Part shown: piece by piece, positions 31,550 through 52,692 of the stretch
Layout of the letters: every line of letters begins with the position of its first letter
How positions within the stretch are numbered: the first letter of the stretch is position 1
Source: Escherichia coli
Lineage (GTDB): Bacteria; Pseudomonadota; Gammaproteobacteria; Enterobacterales; Enterobacteriaceae
Direction: 5' to 3' (one strand)
DNA: 64,000 bases
Assembly: GCF_030013595.1 (NCBI RefSeq)
Contig: NZ_CP122768.1
Notes under the pieces: model-generated
The model's input: only the letters and a program-made list of their open reading frames with translations
Databases searched by the model: none
What the model was told of the DNA's origin: nothing
Program-made: the position numbers and the translations under genes

Positions 31550-32338
31550 ATGCAAACGATTATCCGTGTCGAGAAGCTCGCCAAAACCTTCAATCAGCAT
31601 CAGGCGCTGCACGCGGTTGATCTGAACATTCATCACGGTGAAATGGTGGCTCTGCTTGGGCCGTCGGGTTCCGGCAAATCCACCCTTTTACGTCACTTAA
31701 GCGGTTTGATTACCGGCGATAAATCTGCCGGTAGCCATATCGAGCTGCTGGGTCGCACAGTCCAGCGCGAAGGCCGCCTGGCCCGCGATATCCGCAAAAG
31801 CCGCGCCAACACCGGCTACATCTTCCAACAATTCAACCTGGTGAATCGCCTGAGCGTACTGGAGAACGTGCTGATTGGCGCGCTCGGCAGCACGCCATTC
31901 TGGCGCACCTGTTTTAGCTACTTCACCCGCGAGCAGAAACAGCGCGCGTTACAGGCGCTGACCCGCGTTGGCATGGTGCACTTTGCCCATCAGCGCGTTT
32001 CCACCCTCTCCGGCGGACAGCAGCAGCGTGTGGCGATTGCCCGTGCGCTGATGCAGCAGGCGAAGGTGATTCTGGCCGATGAACCCATCGCCTCGCTGGA
32101 CCCGGAATCGGCGCGCATCGTGATGGACACCCTGCGCGACATTAACCAGAACGACGGCATTACCGTGGTCGTCACGCTGCATCAGGTGGATTACGCCCTG
32201 CGCTACTGCGAACGCATCGTCGCCCTGCGCCAGGGGCACGTCTTCTACGACGGCAGCAGCCAACAGTTTGATAACGAACGTTTTGACCATCTCTACCGCA
32301 GCATCAACCGCGTCGAAGAAAACGCGAAAGCTGCCTGA
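31550..32338 (+). CDS. phnC: Phosphonate ABC transporter, ATP-binding subunit
   Basis: ORF track 262 aa; Walker [13 protein letters not shown] signature LSGGQQQR; GGGAGG RBS. Confidence 0.93.
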
Positions 32339-46833: not shown

Positions 46834-48884
46834 TGAGCGCGCTCAACTCCCTGCCATTACCGGTGGTCAGGCTGCTGGCGTTCTTTCATGAAGAGTTAAG
46901 CGAGCGGCGACCAGGCCGCGTGCCGCAGACCGTGCAACTCTGGGTAGGCTGCCTGCTGGTGATTCTGATCTCGATGACTTTTGAGATCCCTTTTGTGGCG
47001 TTATCACTGGCAGTGCTGTTTTACGGTATTCAGTCGAACGCGTTTTACACCAAATTTGTCGCGATCTTGTTTGTGGTCGCCACGATGCTGGAGATCGGCA
47101 GCCTGTTTTTGATCTACAAATGGTCATACGGCGAACCGTTGATCCGATTGATCATCGCCGGGCCGATCCTGATGGGCTGCATGTTTTTGATGCGCACCCA
47201 TCGGCTGGGACTGGTCTTTTTCGCTGTCGCCATTGTCGCCATTTACGGGCAAACCTTCCCCGCCATGCTCGACTATCCGGAAGTGGTCGTGCGCTTAACC
47301 CTGTGGTGTATCGTTGTCGGCCTCTACCCGACGTTATTGATGACGTTAATCGGCGTGCTGTGGTTTCCCAGCCGCGCTATCACGCAGATGCATCAGGCGC
47401 TTAATGATCGGCTTGATGATGCCATTAGCCACCTGACGAACAGCCTCACACCGCTACCCGAAACGTGGATTGAAAGAGAGGCGCTGGCGCTGCAAAAACT
47501 CAATGTCTTTTGCCTCGCGGACGATGCCAACTGGCGAACTCAGAGCGCATGGTGGCAAAGCTGCGTGGCAACGGTAACCTACATTTACTCGACGCTGAAT
47601 CGCTACGCTCCCACCTCTTTTGCTGATTCTCAGGCAATTATTGAATTTCGGCAAAAATTAGCCTCAGAAATCAACAAACTGCAGCATGCCATTGCCGAAG
47701 GTCAGTGCTGGCAAAGCGACTGGCGGATCAGTGAAAGTGAAGCGATGGCGGCACGGGAATGTAACCTGGAGAATATCTGCCAGACGTTATTGCAACTGGG
47801 TCAGATGGACCCGAATACGCCGCCAACGCCCGCCACCAAACCGCCATCAATGGTCGCCGACGCTTTTACCAATCCAGACTATATGCGCTACGCGGTAAAA
47901 ACGCTGCTCGCCTGTTTGATCTGTTACACCTTCTACAGCGGCGTGGACTGGGAAGGCATTCACACCTGTATGCTGACCTGCGTGATCGTCGCTAACCCAA
48001 ATGTTGGTTCGTCGTATCAGAAAATGGCGCTGCGTTTTGGCGGTGCCTTCTGCGGTGCAATTCTGGCGCTGTTATTCACGTTACTGGTCATGCCCTGGCT
48101 GGACAATATTGTCGAATTGCTATTTGTGCTGGCACCGATTTTCCTGTTGGGCGCATGGATTGCCACCAGCTCTGAACGCTCTTCTTATATCGGCACACAG
48201 ATGGTGGTCACCTTCGCGCTCGCCACGCTCGAAAACGTTTTTGGCCCGGTGTACGACCTGGTGGAAATTCGCGATCGCGCCCTGGGTATCATCATTGGTA
48301 CCGTGGTGTCCGCGGTGATTTACACCTTTGTCTGGCCTGAAAGTGAAGCGCGCACACTGCCCCAAAAACTGGCTGGCGCGCTGGGTATGTTGAGTAAAGT
48401 AATGCGGATCCCACGCCAGCAGGAAGTCACAGCTCTGCGCACTTATTTGCAAATTCGTATAGGTCTGCATGCGGCGTTTAATGCCTGTGAAGAGATGTGC
48501 CAACGCGTGGCGTTGGAGCGTCAACTGGACAGCGAAGAACGCGCTTTACTGATTGAACGTTCGCAAACGGTTATTCGTCAGGGCCGCGATATTCTTCACG
48601 CCTGGGATGCAACCTGGAACTCGGCGCAGGCGCTGGATAACGCACTACAGCCGGACAGAGCAGGTCAGTTTGCCGACGCACTGGAGAAATACGCCGCCGG
48701 TCTGGCAACCGCACTCAGCCGTTCTCCTCAAATAACGCTTGAAGAAACACCCGCCTCGCAGGCCATCCTGCCCACCTTATTAAAACAGGAGCAACACGTC
48801 TGCCAGCTTTTCGCCCGCTTGCCAGACTGGACAGCCCCGGCATTAACGCCCGCCACGGAACAGGTACAAGGAGCCACGCAATGA
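46833..48884 (+). CDS. mdtO: Multidrug efflux inner-membrane component (FUSC/aromatic acid exporter-like)
   Basis: ORF track 683 aa; two hydrophobic blocks separated by a soluble region; ATGA overlap with mdtP. Confidence 0.9.
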   Translation: MSALNSLPLPVVRLLAFFHEELSERRPGRVPQTVQLWVGCLLVILISMTFEIPFVALSLAVLFYGIQSNAFYTKFVAILFVVATMLEIGSLFLIYKWSYGEPLIRLIIAGPILMGCMFLMRTHRLGLVFFAVAIVAIYGQTFPAMLDYPEVVVRLTLWCIVVGLYPTLLMTLIGVLWFPSRAITQMHQALNDRLDDAISHLTNSLTPLPETWIEREALALQKLNVFCLADDANWRTQSAWWQSCVATVTYIYSTLNRYAPTSFADSQAIIEFRQKLASEINKLQHAIAEGQCWQSDWRISESEAMAARECNLENICQTLLQLGQMDPNTPPTPATKPPSMVADAFTNPDYMRYAVKTLLACLICYTFYSGVDWEGIHTCMLTCVIVANPNVGSSYQKMALRFGGAFCGAILALLFTLLVMPWLDNIVELLFVLAPIFLLGAWIATSSERSSYIGTQMVVTFALATLENVFGPVYDLVEIRDRALGIIIGTVVSAVIYTFVWPESEARTLPQKLAGALGMLSKVMRIPRQQEVTALRTYLQIRIGLHAAFNACEEMCQRVALERQLDSEERALLIERSQTVIRQGRDILHAWDATWNSAQALDNALQPDRAGQFADALEKYAAGLATALSRSPQITLEETPASQAILPTLLKQEQHVCQLFARLPDWTAPALTPATEQVQGATQ

Positions 48885-50347
48885 TCAATCGTCAACTTTC
48901 ACGCCTGCTGTTGTGCAGCATTCTCGGCAGCACGACGCTGATTTCCGGCTGTGCCCTGGTACGTAAGGATTCTGCGCCTCATCAACAGCTCAAACCGGAA
49001 CAAATCAAACTGGCCGATGATATTCATCTTGCCAGCTCCGGTTGGCCGCAGGCGCAGTGGTGGAAACAACTCAATGACCCGCAGTTGGATGCACTGGTCC
49101 AACAGACGCTAAGTGGTTCACACACCCTCGCCGAAGCGAAACTGCGGGAAGAAAAAGCGCAGTCGCAGGCCGATTTGTTAGATACCGGTTCACAGTTGCA
49201 GGTGGCAGCGTTAGGGATGCTTAACCGCCAACGCGTCTCGGCGAACGGCTTTTTAAGCCCTTATGCGATGGATGCGCCCGCACTGGGGATGGACGGGCCG
49301 TACTATACGGAAGCCACAGTCGGTTTGTTTGCCGGACTGGATCTTGATTTGTGGGGTGTGCATCGCTCAGCGGTTGCCGCCGCCATTGGCGCGCATAATG
49401 CCGCGCTGGCAGAAACCGCAGCAGTAGAGCTATCGCTGACCACGGGCGTAGCGCAGCTTTATTACAGTATGCAGGCCAGCTATCAGATGCTCGATCTGTT
49501 AGAACAAACTCGCGATGTGATTGATTACGCGGTAAAAGCGCACCAGAGTAAAGTGGCGCACGGTCTGGAAGCGCAAGTGCCTTTCCACGGCGCGCGGGCA
49601 CAGATTCTGGCGGTCGATAAACAAATTGCTGCCGTTAAAGGGCAAATCACCGAAACGCGAGAATCTCTGCGCGCATTGATTGGCGCGGGAGCCAGCGATA
49701 TGCCGGAGATCAAACCGGTGGCATTACCGCAAGTCCAGACCGGTATTCCGGCGACACTCTCTTATGAGTTGCTCGCCAGACGCCCGGATCTGCAAGCGAT
49801 GCGCTGGTATGTTCAGGCGTCATTAGATCAGGTGGATTCCGCGCGGGCGCTGTTCTATCCGAGCTTTGATATCAAAGCGTTTTTCGGCCTGGATTCTATC
49901 CACCTGGATACCTTATTCAAAAAAACCAGTCGCCAGTTTAACTTTATCCCGGGTCTGAAATTGCCGCTGTTTGACGGTGGACGGTTGAATGCCAATCTCG
50001 AAGGCACTCGCGCCGCCAGCAACATGATGATTGAACGTTACAACCAGTCAGTGCTGAATGCGGTGCGCGACGTTGCCGTCAACGGCACGCGTCTGCAAAC
50101 GCTCAACGACGAGCGAGAGATGCAGGCTGAACGCGTGGAAGCAACGCGCTTCACCCAGCGCGCTGCCGAGGCCGCCTATCAACGCGGCTTAACCAGCCGC
50201 TTACAGGCCACTGAAGCCCGGTTGCCAGTACTTGCCGAAGAGATGTCATTACTGATGCTGGACAGCCGCCGGGTGATCCAAAGCATTCAGTTGATGAAAT
50301 CGCTGGGCGGCGGGTATCAGGCGGCTCCCGTCGTCGAGAAAAAATAA
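48881..50347 (+). CDS. mdtP: Outer membrane efflux channel (OMF/TolC-like lipoprotein)
   Basis: ORF track 488 aa; signal peptide plus lipobox (LISGCAL). Confidence 0.9.
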   Translation: MINRQLSRLLLCSILGSTTLISGCALVRKDSAPHQQLKPEQIKLADDIHLASSGWPQAQWWKQLNDPQLDALVQQTLSGSHTLAEAKLREEKAQSQADLLDTGSQLQVAALGMLNRQRVSANGFLSPYAMDAPALGMDGPYYTEATVGLFAGLDLDLWGVHRSAVAAAIGAHNAALAETAAVELSLTTGVAQLYYSMQASYQMLDLLEQTRDVIDYAVKAHQSKVAHGLEAQVPFHGARAQILAVDKQIAAVKGQITETRESLRALIGAGASDMPEIKPVALPQVQTGIPATLSYELLARRPDLQAMRWYVQASLDQVDSARALFYPSFDIKAFFGLDSIHLDTLFKKTSRQFNFIPGLKLPLFDGGRLNANLEGTRAASNMMIERYNQSVLNAVRDVAVNGTRLQTLNDEREMQAERVEATRFTQRAAEAAYQRGLTSRLQATEARLPVLAEEMSLLMLDSRRVIQSIQLMKSLGGGYQAAPVVEKK

Positions 50348-50355
50348 AATGTCTG

Positions 50356-50377
50356 CCGCGTGATGGCTGTCACGCGG
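50356..50377 (+). terminator. Hairpin after mdtP (ccgcgtga / tcacgcgg)
   Basis: 8-bp stem, 6-nt loop, followed by a T-rich stretch; also lies within the expected fdhF upstream activating region. Confidence 0.5.
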
Positions 50378-50476
50378 TATTTCGTTTCGTCACGTCAAAA
50401 CTGACGACAGCCTGTTTTTCGTCAGAGTTTTGAATAAATAGTGCCCGTAATATCAGGGAATGACCCCAAATAAAAT

Positions 50477-50493
50477 GTGGCATAAAAGATGCA
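50477..50493 (+). promoter_or_regulatory. Sigma-54 (-24/-12) promoter of fdhF
   Basis: tGGcataaaagatGCa: GG and GC elements with correct spacing, about 50 bp upstream of the fdhF ATG; fdhF is a known RpoN/FhlA-dependent gene. Confidence 0.75.
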
Positions 50494-50544
50494 TACTGTA
50501 GTCGAGAGCGCGTATGCGTGATTTGATTAACTGGAGCGAGACCG

Positions 50545-52692
50545 ATGAAAAAAGTCGTCACGGTTTGCCCCTATTGCGCATCAGGTTGCAAAATCAACCT
50601 GGTCGTCGATAACGGCAAAATCGTCCGGGCGGAGGCAGCGCAGGGGAAAACCAACCAGGGTACCCTGTGTCTGAAGGGTTATTATGGCTGGGACTTCATT
50701 AACGATACCCAGATCCTGACCCCGCGCCTGAAAACCCCCATGATCCGTCGCCAGCGTGGCGGCAAACTCGAACCTGTTTCCTGGGATGAGGCACTGAATT
50801 ACGTTGCCGAGCGCCTGAGCGCCATCAAAGAGAAGTACGGTCCGGATGCCATCCAGACGACCGGCTCCTCGCGTGGTACGGGTAACGAAACCAACTATGT
50901 AATGCAAAAATTTGCGCGCGCCGTTATTGGTACCAATAACGTTGACTGCTGCGCTCGTGTCTGACACGGCCCATCGGTTGCAGGTCTGCACCAATCGGTC
51001 GGTAATGGCGCAATGAGCAATGCTATTAACGAAATTGATAATACCGATTTAGTGTTCGTTTTCGGGTACAACCCGGCGGATTCCCACCCAATCGTGGCGA
51101 ATCACGTAATTAACGCTAAACGTAACGGGGCGAAAATTATCGTCTGCGATCCGCGCAAAATTGAAACCGCGCGCATTGCGGACATGCACATTGCACTGAA
51201 AAACGGCTCAAACATCGCGCTGTTGAATGCGATGGGTCATGTCATTATTGAAGAAAACCTGTACGACAAAGCGTTCGTCGCTTCCCGTACAGAAGGCTTT
51301 GAAGAGTATCGTAAAATCGTTGAAGGCTACACGCCGGAGTCGGTTGAAGATATCACCGGCGTCAGCGCCAGTGAGATTCGTCAGGCGGCACGGATGTATG
51401 CCCAGGCGAAAAGCGCCGCCATCCTGTGGGGCATGGGTGTAACCCAGTTCTACCAGGGTGTGGAAACCGTGCGTTCTCTGACCAGCCTCGCGATGCTGAC
51501 TGGTAACCTCGGTAAGCCGCATGCGGGTGTAAACCCGGTTCGTGGTCAGAACAACGTGCAGGGTGCCTGCGATATGGGCGCGCTGCCGGATACGTATCCG
51601 GGCTATCAGTACGTGAAAGATCCGGCTAACCGCGAGAAATTCGCCAAAGCCTGGGGCGTGGAAAGCCTGCCAGCGCATACCGGCTATCGCATCAGCGAGC
51701 TGCCGCACCGCGCAGCGCATGGCGAAGTGCGTGCCGCGTACATTATGGGCGAAGATCCGCTGCAAACTGACGCGGAGCTGTCGGCAGTACGTAAAGCCTT
51801 CGAAGATCTGGAACTGGTCATCGTTCAGGACATCTTTATGACCAAAACCGCGTCGGCGGCGGATGTTATTTTACCGTCAACGTCGTGGGGCGAGCATGAA
51901 GGCGTGTTTACTGCGGCTGACCGTGGCTTCCAGCGTTTCTTCAAAGCGGTTGAACCGAAGTGGGATCTGAAAACGGACTGGCAAATCATCAGTGAAATCG
52001 CCACCCGTATGGGTTATCCGATGCACTACAACAACACCCAGGAGATCTGGGATGAGTTGCGTCATCTGTGCCCGGATTTCTACGGTGCGACTTACGAGAA
52101 AATGGGCGAACTGGGCTTCATTCAGTGGCCTTGCCGCGATACTTCAGATGCCGATCAGGGGACTTCTTATCTGTTTAAAGAGAAGTTTGATACCCCGAAC
52201 GGTCTGGCGCAGTTCTTCACCTGCGACTGGGTAGCGCCAATCGACAAACTCACCGACGAGTATCCGATGGTACTGTCAACGGTGCGTGAAGTTGGTCACT
52301 ACTCTTGCCGTTCGATGACCGGTAACTGTGCGGCACTGGCAGCGCTGGCTGATGAACCTGGCTACGCACAAATCAATACCGAAGACGCCAAACGTCTGGG
52401 TATTGAAGATGAGGCATTGGTTTGGGTGCACTCGCGTAAAGGCAAAATTATCACCCGTGCGCAGGTCAGCGATCGTCCGAACAAAGGGGCGATTTATATG
52501 ACCTACCAGTGGTGGATTGGTGCCTGTAACGAGCTGGTTACCGAAAACTTAAGCCCGATTACGAAAACGCCGGAATACAAATACTGCGCCGTGCGCGTCG
52601 AGCCGATCGCCGATCAGCGCGCCGCCGAGCAGTACGTGATTGACGAGTACAACAAGTTGAAAACTCGCCTGCGCGAAGCGGCACTGGCGTAA
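50545..52692 (+). CDS. fdhF: Formate dehydrogenase H, selenocysteine-containing molybdoenzyme (in-frame UGA at 50962..50964 read as Sec)
   Basis: ORF track splits this into 50545..50964 and 51013..52692 in the same frame; the only interruption is TGA at 50962..50964 (...NNVDCCARV-U-HGPSVAGLHQSVGNG...); N-terminal Fe-S Cys motif CPYCASGC; total 715 codons. Confidence 0.93.
50962..51005 (+). other. Selenocysteine UGA codon plus downstream SECIS stem-loop
   Basis: tga cacggcccatcggttgcaggtctgcaccaatcggtcggtaatggc: a hairpin-forming segment immediately 3' of the in-frame UGA, matching the recalled fdhF SECIS. Confidence 0.85.

Follow-up and report, generated by a model that had tools for sequence, protein, structure and literature searches.

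The fdhF promoter of Escherichia coli K-12 belongs to the formate regulon (Birkmann, Schlensog, Rossmann, Bock and colleagues). It is a textbook promoter for enhancer-dependent transcription by sigma-54 and acts as the switch that controls formate hydrogenlyase and the production of hydrogen. The activator FhlA binds formate; on DNA it contacts a single face, and it binds upstream of both fdhF and hyc (PMC11291172). Control of fdhF by FhlA is exerted via sigma-54 (bioRxiv 10.1101/2021.01.06.425572), and the activity of a Proteus fdhF reporter drops in fhlA and rpoN mutants (PMC7658346). The general mechanism of enhancer-dependent sigma-54 promoters has been summarised (PMC3844500).

Here we describe the mdtP-fdhF intergenic region within a stretch of 64,000 nucleotides of E. 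coli DNA (RefSeq assembly GCF_030013595.1, contig NZ_CP122768.1), referred to as the window. Coordinates are those of the window, and features lie on the plus strand unless stated otherwise. With a probability of roughly 93%, this is the region already known to control fdhF in response to formate. The fdhF control region is real, well conserved and already known; comparison across species adds detail to its upstream part.

Results

The genes flanking the region had been named from the raw sequence as mdtP and fdhF, and both identities are borne out by RefSeq annotation and by an Rfam SECIS_2 match. mdtP (48881..50347; open reading frame list and RefSeq annotation) encodes the outer-membrane channel of the MdtNOP efflux pump and ends in a TAA codon at 50345-50347. 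After a gap of 197 bp follows fdhF (50545..52692), which encodes formate dehydrogenase H. It appears in the open reading frame list as two frames (50545..50964 and 51013..52692) broken by a TGA alone, the in-frame selenocysteine codon at 50962-50964, and its SECIS element (50957-51011, 87.1 bits) was the sole Rfam match in a scan of 50200-51200, with nothing in the intergenic region. By RefSeq annotation, 5,419 of 5,426 E. coli genomes have mdtP on the upstream side and fdhF on the downstream side. K-12 MG1655 has this gene order too, and positions 50330-50560 differ from it by one base only, 50469, in the stretch that separates the upstream site from the promoter described below. The conserved 5′ leader and ribosome-binding region, GATTAACTGGAGCGAGACCG (50524..50544), contains GGAG at 50533-36; over 50528-50538 its identity is 90% or more in a comparison of 80 Enterobacteriaceae species. 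A minus-strand open reading frame of 63 amino acids (50370..50561), which covers the promoter and the upstream site, was rejected as a gene because conservation across it is block-wise and not codon-like.

The sigma-54 promoter, TGGCATAAAAGATGCA (tGGcataaaagatGCa in our check), occupies 50478..50493 and is identified by sequence, matrix score, published occupancy and conservation. Its GG (50479-80) and GC (50491-92) doublets have the canonical spacing (TGGCAC-N5-TTGCW). The original prediction had put a -24/-12 element about 50 bp upstream of the fdhF ATG, and the distance from the 3′ end of the element to the ATG (50545) is indeed 51 bp; the start of the element had been given as 50477 and is in fact 50478. 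That this element is a sigma-54 promoter is confirmed by published occupancy data. It is the motif beneath sigma-54 ChIP-seq peak OS41, listed as FAT 41 and tabulated as an experimentally confirmed EcoCyc promoter (PMC4591121). The site was also picked up in vitro by gSELEX (PMC8743547), and in Salmonella the homologous site is bound by sigma-54 in ChIP-chip, with fdhF up 29-fold in a sigma-54-dependent manner (PMC3844500). When the start is placed 19 bp downstream of the motif centre, a rule that gives a "distance 41" for fdhF (PMC4591121), the predicted +1 falls at 50504, 41 bp before the ATG. Of 80 Enterobacteriaceae species, 77 retain the pattern TGG-N9-TGC, placed between -51 and -84 relative to the ATG.

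Across the same 80 species, the strongest non-coding conservation footprint is 50386-50425, whichever gene lies upstream; relative to the predicted start at 50504 this strongly conserved block spans -118 to -79. It begins with a core, TTCGTCACGTCAAAACTGACGA (50386..50407, -118 to -97), in which identity is at least 90% at nearly all positions of the MAFFT profile and from which CG[AT]C[AG]CGTCA is present in 74 of 81 sequences. Two inverted-repeat motifs had been noticed between 50360 and 50430. The first, a perfect 8 bp repeat, belongs to the hairpin discussed below. The second, gtcacgtcaaaactgacgac (50389..50408), does not hold as a whole and is an inverted repeat in part only; the true dyad is CGTCA-AAAC-TGACG (CGTCA-N4-TGACG), which is perfect, lies at 50393-50406 within the core and is accompanied by outer arms TCGTCA/TGACGA at 50387-92 and 50402-07. 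In an E. coli strain of 93% identity the upstream site is invariant and its flanking mdtP sequence is much changed.

The upstream site also includes a third conserved element beyond these two motifs, the promoter-proximal TTTCGTCAG (50417-50425, -87 to -79), which GTTTTG at 50427-50432 extends to 50417..50432. It is a direct repeat of TTTCGTCA (50385-92) at a distance of 32 bp and the inverted partner of CTGACGA at 50401-07. Its identity across species is at least 75%, and in 70 of 74 sequences its CGTCA stands at a fixed offset of +31 relative to the core.

The distance from core to promoter is tightly held: 89 bp in 63 of 74 sequences, 89-90 bp in 66 and 80-81 bp in 8, and the 89 and 80 bp classes are one helical turn apart. 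The distance from promoter to ATG is free to vary, from 51 to 84 bp. This supports the view that the position and phasing of the upstream site are those of a sigma-54 enhancer, for which a place about 70-150 bp ahead of the promoter is expected. Between site and promoter lies a conserved spacer block, CCGTAATATCAGG (50445..50457, strand not assigned), with mostly 50-90% identity across species at 50445-50455, which is missing from the 80-81 bp spacing class. A candidate IHF site was considered at 50448-50463, where by eye a single mismatch separates the sequence from WATCARNNNNTTR; in this form it is not conserved.

It could be argued that these motifs are chance matches in an ordinary spacer and that fdhF is driven by another promoter. 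Taken by itself, the single sequence does not set the promoter or the dyad apart from the background. The promoter element scores 13.4 of 21.4 bits with a matrix of 186 sigma-54 promoters, which ranks it fifth in the 64-kb window on both strands, and none of the four better-scoring matrix matches in the window is among the ChIP-seq peaks of PMC4591121; the FhlA match, described below, is at background level; and a dyad of 5+5 bp is to be expected by chance about twice per 200 bp by our estimate. Against this, the promoter is conserved in 77 of 80 species and occupied by sigma-54 in ChIP-seq (PMC4591121) and gSELEX (PMC8743547). The internal and core-promoter spacings are fixed, and a search of 50200-50700 found no sigma-70-like promoter. 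Promoter and dyad are beyond chance because they are conserved across the 80 species and because sigma-54 occupancy has been published. The explanation by chance, which we consider exceedingly improbable, has already been contradicted by both conservation and occupancy.

The activating region had been predicted to lie where an enhancer-binding protein such as FhlA would be expected. This is upheld by its coincidence with the best-conserved non-coding block in 80 species, by its helical phasing and by elements in common with hyc/hyp, hyf and hydN; these features support the block at -118 to -79 as the place where the candidate FhlA enhancer is expected. The interval proposed, 50360..50430, stands as well. 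Its description as 90-130 bp further upstream was imprecise, for its distance to the -24 element downstream is 48-118 bp, and it spans -144 to -74.

By sequence, the core only weakly resembles the FhlA consensus. The best FhlA-matrix match of the intergenic region, CGTCAAAACTGACG, falls in the core and scores 8.1 of 17.1 bits with this low-information matrix, whose background matches in the window exceed 10.2 bits at over 25 sites; the matrix, made from 13 published sites (PMC7658346 Table 2), is too weak to part the site from background. The placing of FhlA at the fdhF upstream site comes from the literature. Comparison of the four FhlA-controlled regions of E. coli (fdhF, hyc/hyp, hyf and hydN) revealed no exact 6-mer common to all. 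Three 5-mers are common to the four regions, CGACA being present in each, against an expectation of 0.35; this number is reached by 1% of shuffles. G[AT]CACG, a hexamer picked post hoc, occurs twice in fdhF, twice in hyc and once in hyf, compared with about 0.07 expected per 90 bp; hydN has CGACA in common with fdhF and lacks G[AT]CACG.

The poor fit to the published matrix, and the presence of a separate conserved block at 50445-50457 to which no factor is assigned, would suit a model in which FhlA acts elsewhere or indirectly and the main protein on the upstream block is another regulator, for example its paralogue HyfR or a factor that responds to nitrate or molybdate. We consider this very unlikely, since the literature places FhlA upstream of fdhF and makes fdhF dependent on it (PMC11291172, PMC7658346, bioRxiv 10.1101/2021.01.06.425572), the block has elements in common with hyc/hyp, hydN and hyf, and its position and phasing fit a sigma-54 enhancer.

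The first of the predicted inverted repeats lies directly behind mdtP, in an intrinsic-terminator-like element at 50354..50389 that consists of a stem (50354-50379) followed by a T tract. The perfect repeat, ccgcgtgatggctgtcacgcgg (50356..50377), has 8 bp arms and a 6-nt spacer; at its full extent of 50354..50379 the hairpin has 11 pairs, 6 of them G-C, and a 4-nt loop. The stem begins 7 nt past the mdtP TAA and folds as RNA at -19.6 kcal/mol (z = -4.1 versus shuffles). The T tract, TTTCGTTTCG (50380-50389), is interrupted, with 6 T in 10, and was accepted by the scanner at its threshold of 5 in 8; no other terminator-like site was found in 50200-50700. Pseudocitrobacter has a poorer T-rich tail. 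All 12 sequences in which mdtP lies directly upstream have a hairpin, with folding energies between -15.7 and -20.3 kcal/mol, compared with a median of -8.3 kcal/mol for the 62 folded sequences without mdtP there. Within the stem, 94.7% of cells pair and two pairs show compensatory change from G-C to A-U, in a small sample (n=9). As the hairpin is restricted to mdtP-linked loci and carries compensatory changes, it behaves as the mdtP terminator. Judged by these features, the hairpin and its T-rich tail most likely terminate or stabilise the mdtNOP transcript.

Within the 3′ arm of this hairpin lies GTCACG (50369..50374, -135 to -130), a candidate for the outermost FhlA contact. The same hexamer recurs in direct orientation within the core, 20 bp or two helical turns away. 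Of 74 sequences, 65 have GTCA[CT] at 17-21 bp ahead of the core and 62 have it at 18-22 bp, the latter including 50 of the 62 species without mdtP upstream. Retention of the distal GTCAC (50369-50373) in most species, even where mdtP or the hairpin is absent, suggests that the mdtP terminator and the fdhF enhancer probably share bases. The proposal that the first hairpin doubles as the mdtP terminator thus fared well: the hairpin tracks mdtP, and the GTCAC of its 3′ arm is kept without mdtP.

How far this sharing extends to function can be read in two ways. The distal GTCAC(G) may be a true third FhlA contact, two helical turns from the core and conserved across Enterobacteriaceae irrespective of the upstream gene, around which the mdtP hairpin was built in Escherichia, Salmonella, Kluyvera and Pseudocitrobacter. 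The same bases would then act at the RNA level as a terminator arm for mdtP and at the DNA level as part of the enhancer of fdhF, and the distance between enhancer and promoter would be restricted to the 89 and 80 bp classes. We advance this tentatively, at somewhat short of even odds. Alternatively, the hairpin at 50354-50379 would be the mdtP terminator only, with no role in fdhF activation; GTCAC would be due to chance, shared ancestry or the site of another factor, and FhlA would function through 50386-50425 only. Core and promoter are kept in 9 of 74 sequences that lack GTCA[CT] at 17-21 bp, and in the MAFFT profile the distal element reaches 50-90% conservation, the core at least 90%. 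Published mutational work reportedly places the fdhF upstream site about 100-120 bp ahead of the start; this presumably covers the core only and would also favour a terminator without enhancer function. What a terminator alone does not account for is the constraint of GTCA[CT] to an offset of 17-21 bp in 65 of 74 sequences amid surrounding bases that are not conserved, its presence at 18-22 bp in 50 of 62 species without mdtP or hairpin, and the repetition of the core hexamer at exactly two helical turns. We consider the terminator-only alternative somewhat less likely than not.

Discussion

Taken together, the data fit the following scheme. Sigma-54 RNA polymerase sits on 50478-50493, a promoter known from the literature, as a closed complex that is unable to open alone. 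Formate-activated FhlA would bind an upstream activating sequence whose centre lies about 105 bp before the start, as we infer here and as the literature has shown; the parts of its site would be the core (50386-50407), the flanking element (50417-50425) and probably the distal GTCACG (50369-50374). By looping out the DNA between, FhlA would contact the polymerase, and its ATP hydrolysis would then drive promoter opening, with transcription from near 50504. The mdtP hairpin, whose 3′ arm and tail would overlap the distal part of the enhancer, may in addition shield fdhF from read-through.

The agreement of the original prediction with the known locus shows that a real regulatory region is recognisable from raw sequence. 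Three points are added by comparison: the distal element that is probably common to the enhancer and the mdtP terminator, the strict 89 or 80 bp phasing, and the conserved spacer block. They refine the known picture and change none of it, and the overlap of distal GTCAC with the terminator and the 89 versus 80 bp classes may already be contained in the primary papers. They could help to define the poorly defined FhlA motif and to design formate biosensors.

From the K-12 fdhF promoter and its FhlA-dependent upstream activating sequence the present region shows no difference of substance: locus, OS41 motif and gene order are the same. Like NtrC at glnAp2 and other enhancer-dependent sigma-54 promoters, it would combine an activator site about 100 bp upstream with DNA looping and dependence on the face of the helix; unlike NtrC, FhlA is activated by formate binding and not by phosphorylation, and the DNA motif differs. 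Within the formate regulon, fdhF resembles hyc/hyp, hydN-hypF and hyf: each pairs a -24/-12 element for sigma-54 with a GWC-rich site that precedes it by about 60-110 bp, and CGACA/TGTCG is common to all of them. The half-sites are arranged differently: fdhF combines CGTCA-N4-TGACG with direct repeats on its flanks, in hyc/hyp a TGTCGA tandem is joined by two copies of GACACG, and hydN and hyf have 14-bp palindromes. The AATAACA-N-TAAATTAAAA tract that stands ahead of the promoter in hyc and hydN is absent from fdhF, and among the FhlA-controlled regions compared, a terminator overlapping the activator site is found at fdhF only.

Locus and compared sequences

The window is E. coli DNA: a 501-bp query around the finding matched 5,419 of 5,426 complete E. 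coli genomes, and the annotated gene order under those matches was mdtP followed by fdhF. Within 50330-50560 the window differs from K-12 MG1655 at a single base, 50469. mdtP runs from 48881 to 50347 and fdhF begins at 50545, its reading frame interrupted solely by a TGA at 50962. A SECIS element (Rfam SECIS_2, 87.1 bits, 50957-51011) spans this in-frame TGA (50962-50964), which encodes the selenocysteine of formate dehydrogenase H. Given these identifications and the one-base separation from K-12, the K-12 fdhF literature is valid for the window sequence.

One genome per species was scanned with the first 139 FdhF residues, which yielded 80 Enterobacteriaceae loci. mdtP ends within ~215 bp upstream of the ATG in only 11 of them; 3 more carry an mdtP-like match that is farther away or partial, and the remaining 66 have no upstream mdtP match. 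Because the upstream gene varies in this way, features owned by fdhF can be separated from those owned by mdtP.

The sigma-54 promoter

The -24/-12 element TGGCATAAAAGATGCA carries GG and GC at canonical spacing and ends 51 bp from the fdhF ATG. The element proposed originally is thus real, although it starts at 50478 rather than 50477 (50478-50493). Its assignment as the fdhF sigma-54 promoter is borne out by several lines of evidence. ChIP-seq in MG1655 placed a sigma-54 peak (OS41, Fold-Above-Threshold 41) upstream of fdhF, with motif GTGGCATAAAAGATGCA and a predicted start 41 bp 5′ of the gene, at window position 50504; in the accompanying table the promoter carries a flag for experimental confirmation in EcoCyc (PMC4591121). 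The mdtP-fdhF spacer was recovered by genomic SELEX with reconstituted holoenzyme (PMC8743547). In Salmonella, the homologous TGGCATAAAACATGCA was bound, and fdhF showed a 29-fold, sigma-54-dependent rise when a promiscuous activator was supplied (PMC3844500). TGG-N9-TGC was kept in 77/80 loci, 51 to 84 bp upstream of the ATG, with identity of at least 90% at TGGCAT and TGCAT (50478-50493) in the 80-species alignment. No sigma-70-like promoter was found in 50200-50700.

With a published sigma-54 matrix (PMC7658346), the promoter scored 13.4 of 21.4 bits and ranked fifth in the window. Four sites outscored it, at 31793(-), 48790(-), 58957(+) and 8204(-), one of them TGGCAGACGTGTTGCT, antisense within mdtO; none is among the published ChIP-seq peaks.

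Downstream, the ribosome-binding region (50528-50538) is at least 90% identical, and the leader around the Shine-Dalgarno sequence (TTAACTGGAGCGA, 50524-50544) is at least 90% conserved across the 80 species, exceeding the rest of the leader.

The upstream activating site and its spacing

A second inverted repeat had been proposed at 50389-50408. A dyad is present there, CGTCA-AAAC-TGACG (50393-50406), flanked by outer arms TCGTCA/TGACGA, but the region is only partly symmetric. Further repeats include an element absent from the original prediction, TTTCGTCA at 50385 and 50417 (32 bp apart), as well as GTCACG at 50369 and 50389 (20 bp apart) and the inverted pair CTGACGA (50401) and TCGTCAG (50419). 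Against a published 13-site FhlA matrix, also from PMC7658346, the dyad gave the top match of the intergenic region, scoring 8.1 of 17.1 bits; over 25 background sites elsewhere in the 64-kb stretch exceeded 10.2. Judged from the single sequence alone, the promoter, repeats and dyad are not statistically striking.

Across species, identity is at least 90% over the 5′ part of the core, TTCG[T/A]CACGTCAA (50386-50399), and over TGACGA (50402-50407), and mostly 75-90% over CTGTTTTTCGTCAG and GTTTTG (50412-50432). The core pattern CG[AT]C[AG]CGTCA was present in 74/81 sequences, 70 of which (70/74) had a downstream CGTCA at a fixed +31. With +1 at 50504, the core (50386-50407) spans -118 to -97 and the proximal element (50417-50425) -87 to -79. 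The mutationally defined fdhF upstream site of Birkmann and Bock (1989) reportedly lies ~100-120 bp upstream of the start. More distant loci from Atlantibacter (L078, L079, L083) and Arsenophonus (L082) carry a variant core, (A/C)ATG(A/T)CA-N4-TGTCGA, which points to half-sites in which A and T are interchangeable (GWCA/TGWC).

Of the 74 sequences (compared loci L005-L084 vs. window 50389-50478), 63 placed the core 89 bp from the -24 TGG, 3 placed it at 90 bp and 8 at 80-81 bp; the distance from promoter to ATG varied freely from 51 to 84 bp. The two classes are one helical turn apart, as a looping enhancer dependent on the face of the helix predicts. Position, conservation and phasing together support the candidate activating region upstream of the promoter.

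The spacer separating the upstream site from the promoter holds a further block, CCGTAATATCAGG (50445-50457), kept in most 89-bp species and lost in the 80-81 bp class. Identity over CCGTAATATC (50445-50455) is mostly 50-90%, and by eye TATCAGGGAATGA departs from the IHF consensus WATCARNNNNTTR at a single position. The hairpin and upstream site are flanked by AAATAAAATGT, an exact 11-nt direct repeat whose first copy (50342-50352) overlaps the mdtP stop codon and whose second (50468-50478) adjoins the -24 element; the repeat is probably a chance feature of A/T-rich sequence, since it is inexact in E. albertii.

The mdtP hairpin and a probably shared distal element

The first inverted repeat described originally (50356-50377) is indeed a perfect 8-bp stem; when extended, it forms 11 pairs around a 4-nt loop (50354-50379), and TTTCGTTTCG, an interrupted T tract, comes next. 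The predicted RNA fold, at -19.6 kcal/mol, was more stable than all 200 shuffles. A strong hairpin lies just past the stop codon in 12/12 mdtP-linked sequences (-15.7 to -20.3 kcal/mol) and in none of 62 folded sequences without upstream mdtP (median -8.3 kcal/mol). In a small sample of 9 distinct mdtP-linked sequences, pairing was kept in 94.7% of cells, with compensatory changes at two pairs; for instance, A-U replaces G-C in Kluyvera cryocrescens and Salmonella arizonae. As it is tied to mdtP and its pairing is kept by compensatory changes, the hairpin is a feature of mdtP, most likely its intrinsic terminator. A 93%-identical E. coli strain has an altered loop, closing pair and tail, with 50386-50438 unchanged.

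GTCAC in the 3′ arm (50369-50373) is conserved unlike the rest of the hairpin. In 65/74 sequences GTCA[CT] precedes the core by 17-21 bp, and 50/62 species lacking both mdtP and the hairpin have it at 18-22 bp, among surrounding bases that are not conserved; this distal GTCAC(G) (50369-50374) is a second copy of the core hexamer at a distance of two helical turns. The pentamer could instead be dispensable, a plausible though less likely reading. A distal enhancer part re-used by the terminator arm is the likely explanation, so the proposed overlap of terminator and activating region is supported, for a more specific reason than originally given.

Many species without upstream mdtP have a GTGAC-N15-GTCAC inverted repeat ~20-45 bp upstream of the core (L013, L050, L059, L065-L070, L072, L073 and other loci; Enterobacter, Lelliottia); at this position E. 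coli has GTGAT-N4-GTCAC, 11 bp closer. The hairpin may have arisen from an older dyad.

FhlA and comparison with known systems

FhlA binds formate, contacts one DNA face and binds upstream of fdhF and hyc (PMC11291172), both of which are controlled by the formate-activated protein via sigma-54 (bioRxiv 10.1101/2021.01.06.425572). Activity of a Proteus fdhF reporter was lowered in fhlA and rpoN mutants (PMC7658346). The original observation is confirmed and its interpretation as the fdhF control region supported, with FhlA binding as given in the literature. As the literature has shown, sigma-54 holoenzyme occupies 50478-50493 in a closed complex. In agreement with published statements, position, conservation and phasing suggest that formate-activated FhlA would bind a site centred near -105, loop the DNA and open the promoter by ATP hydrolysis, with transcription predicted to start near 50504. 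The mdtP hairpin would keep upstream transcription out of fdhF, which would preserve strict formate control.

When the fdhF region was set beside those of hyc/hyp, hydN and hyf in E. coli, CGACA/TGTCG proved common to all four, which share 3 5-mers vs. 0.35 expected and no exact 6-mer. G[AT]CACG, a hexamer chosen post hoc, has two copies each in fdhF and hyc and one in hyf (background ~0.07 per 90 bp). Half-site arrangement differs among these targets, and several binding registers are therefore possible for FhlA. The feature is already known as a textbook system, to which a distal element that the terminator probably shares, two classes of spacing (89 and 80 bp) and the conserved block at 50445-50457 would be modest additions.
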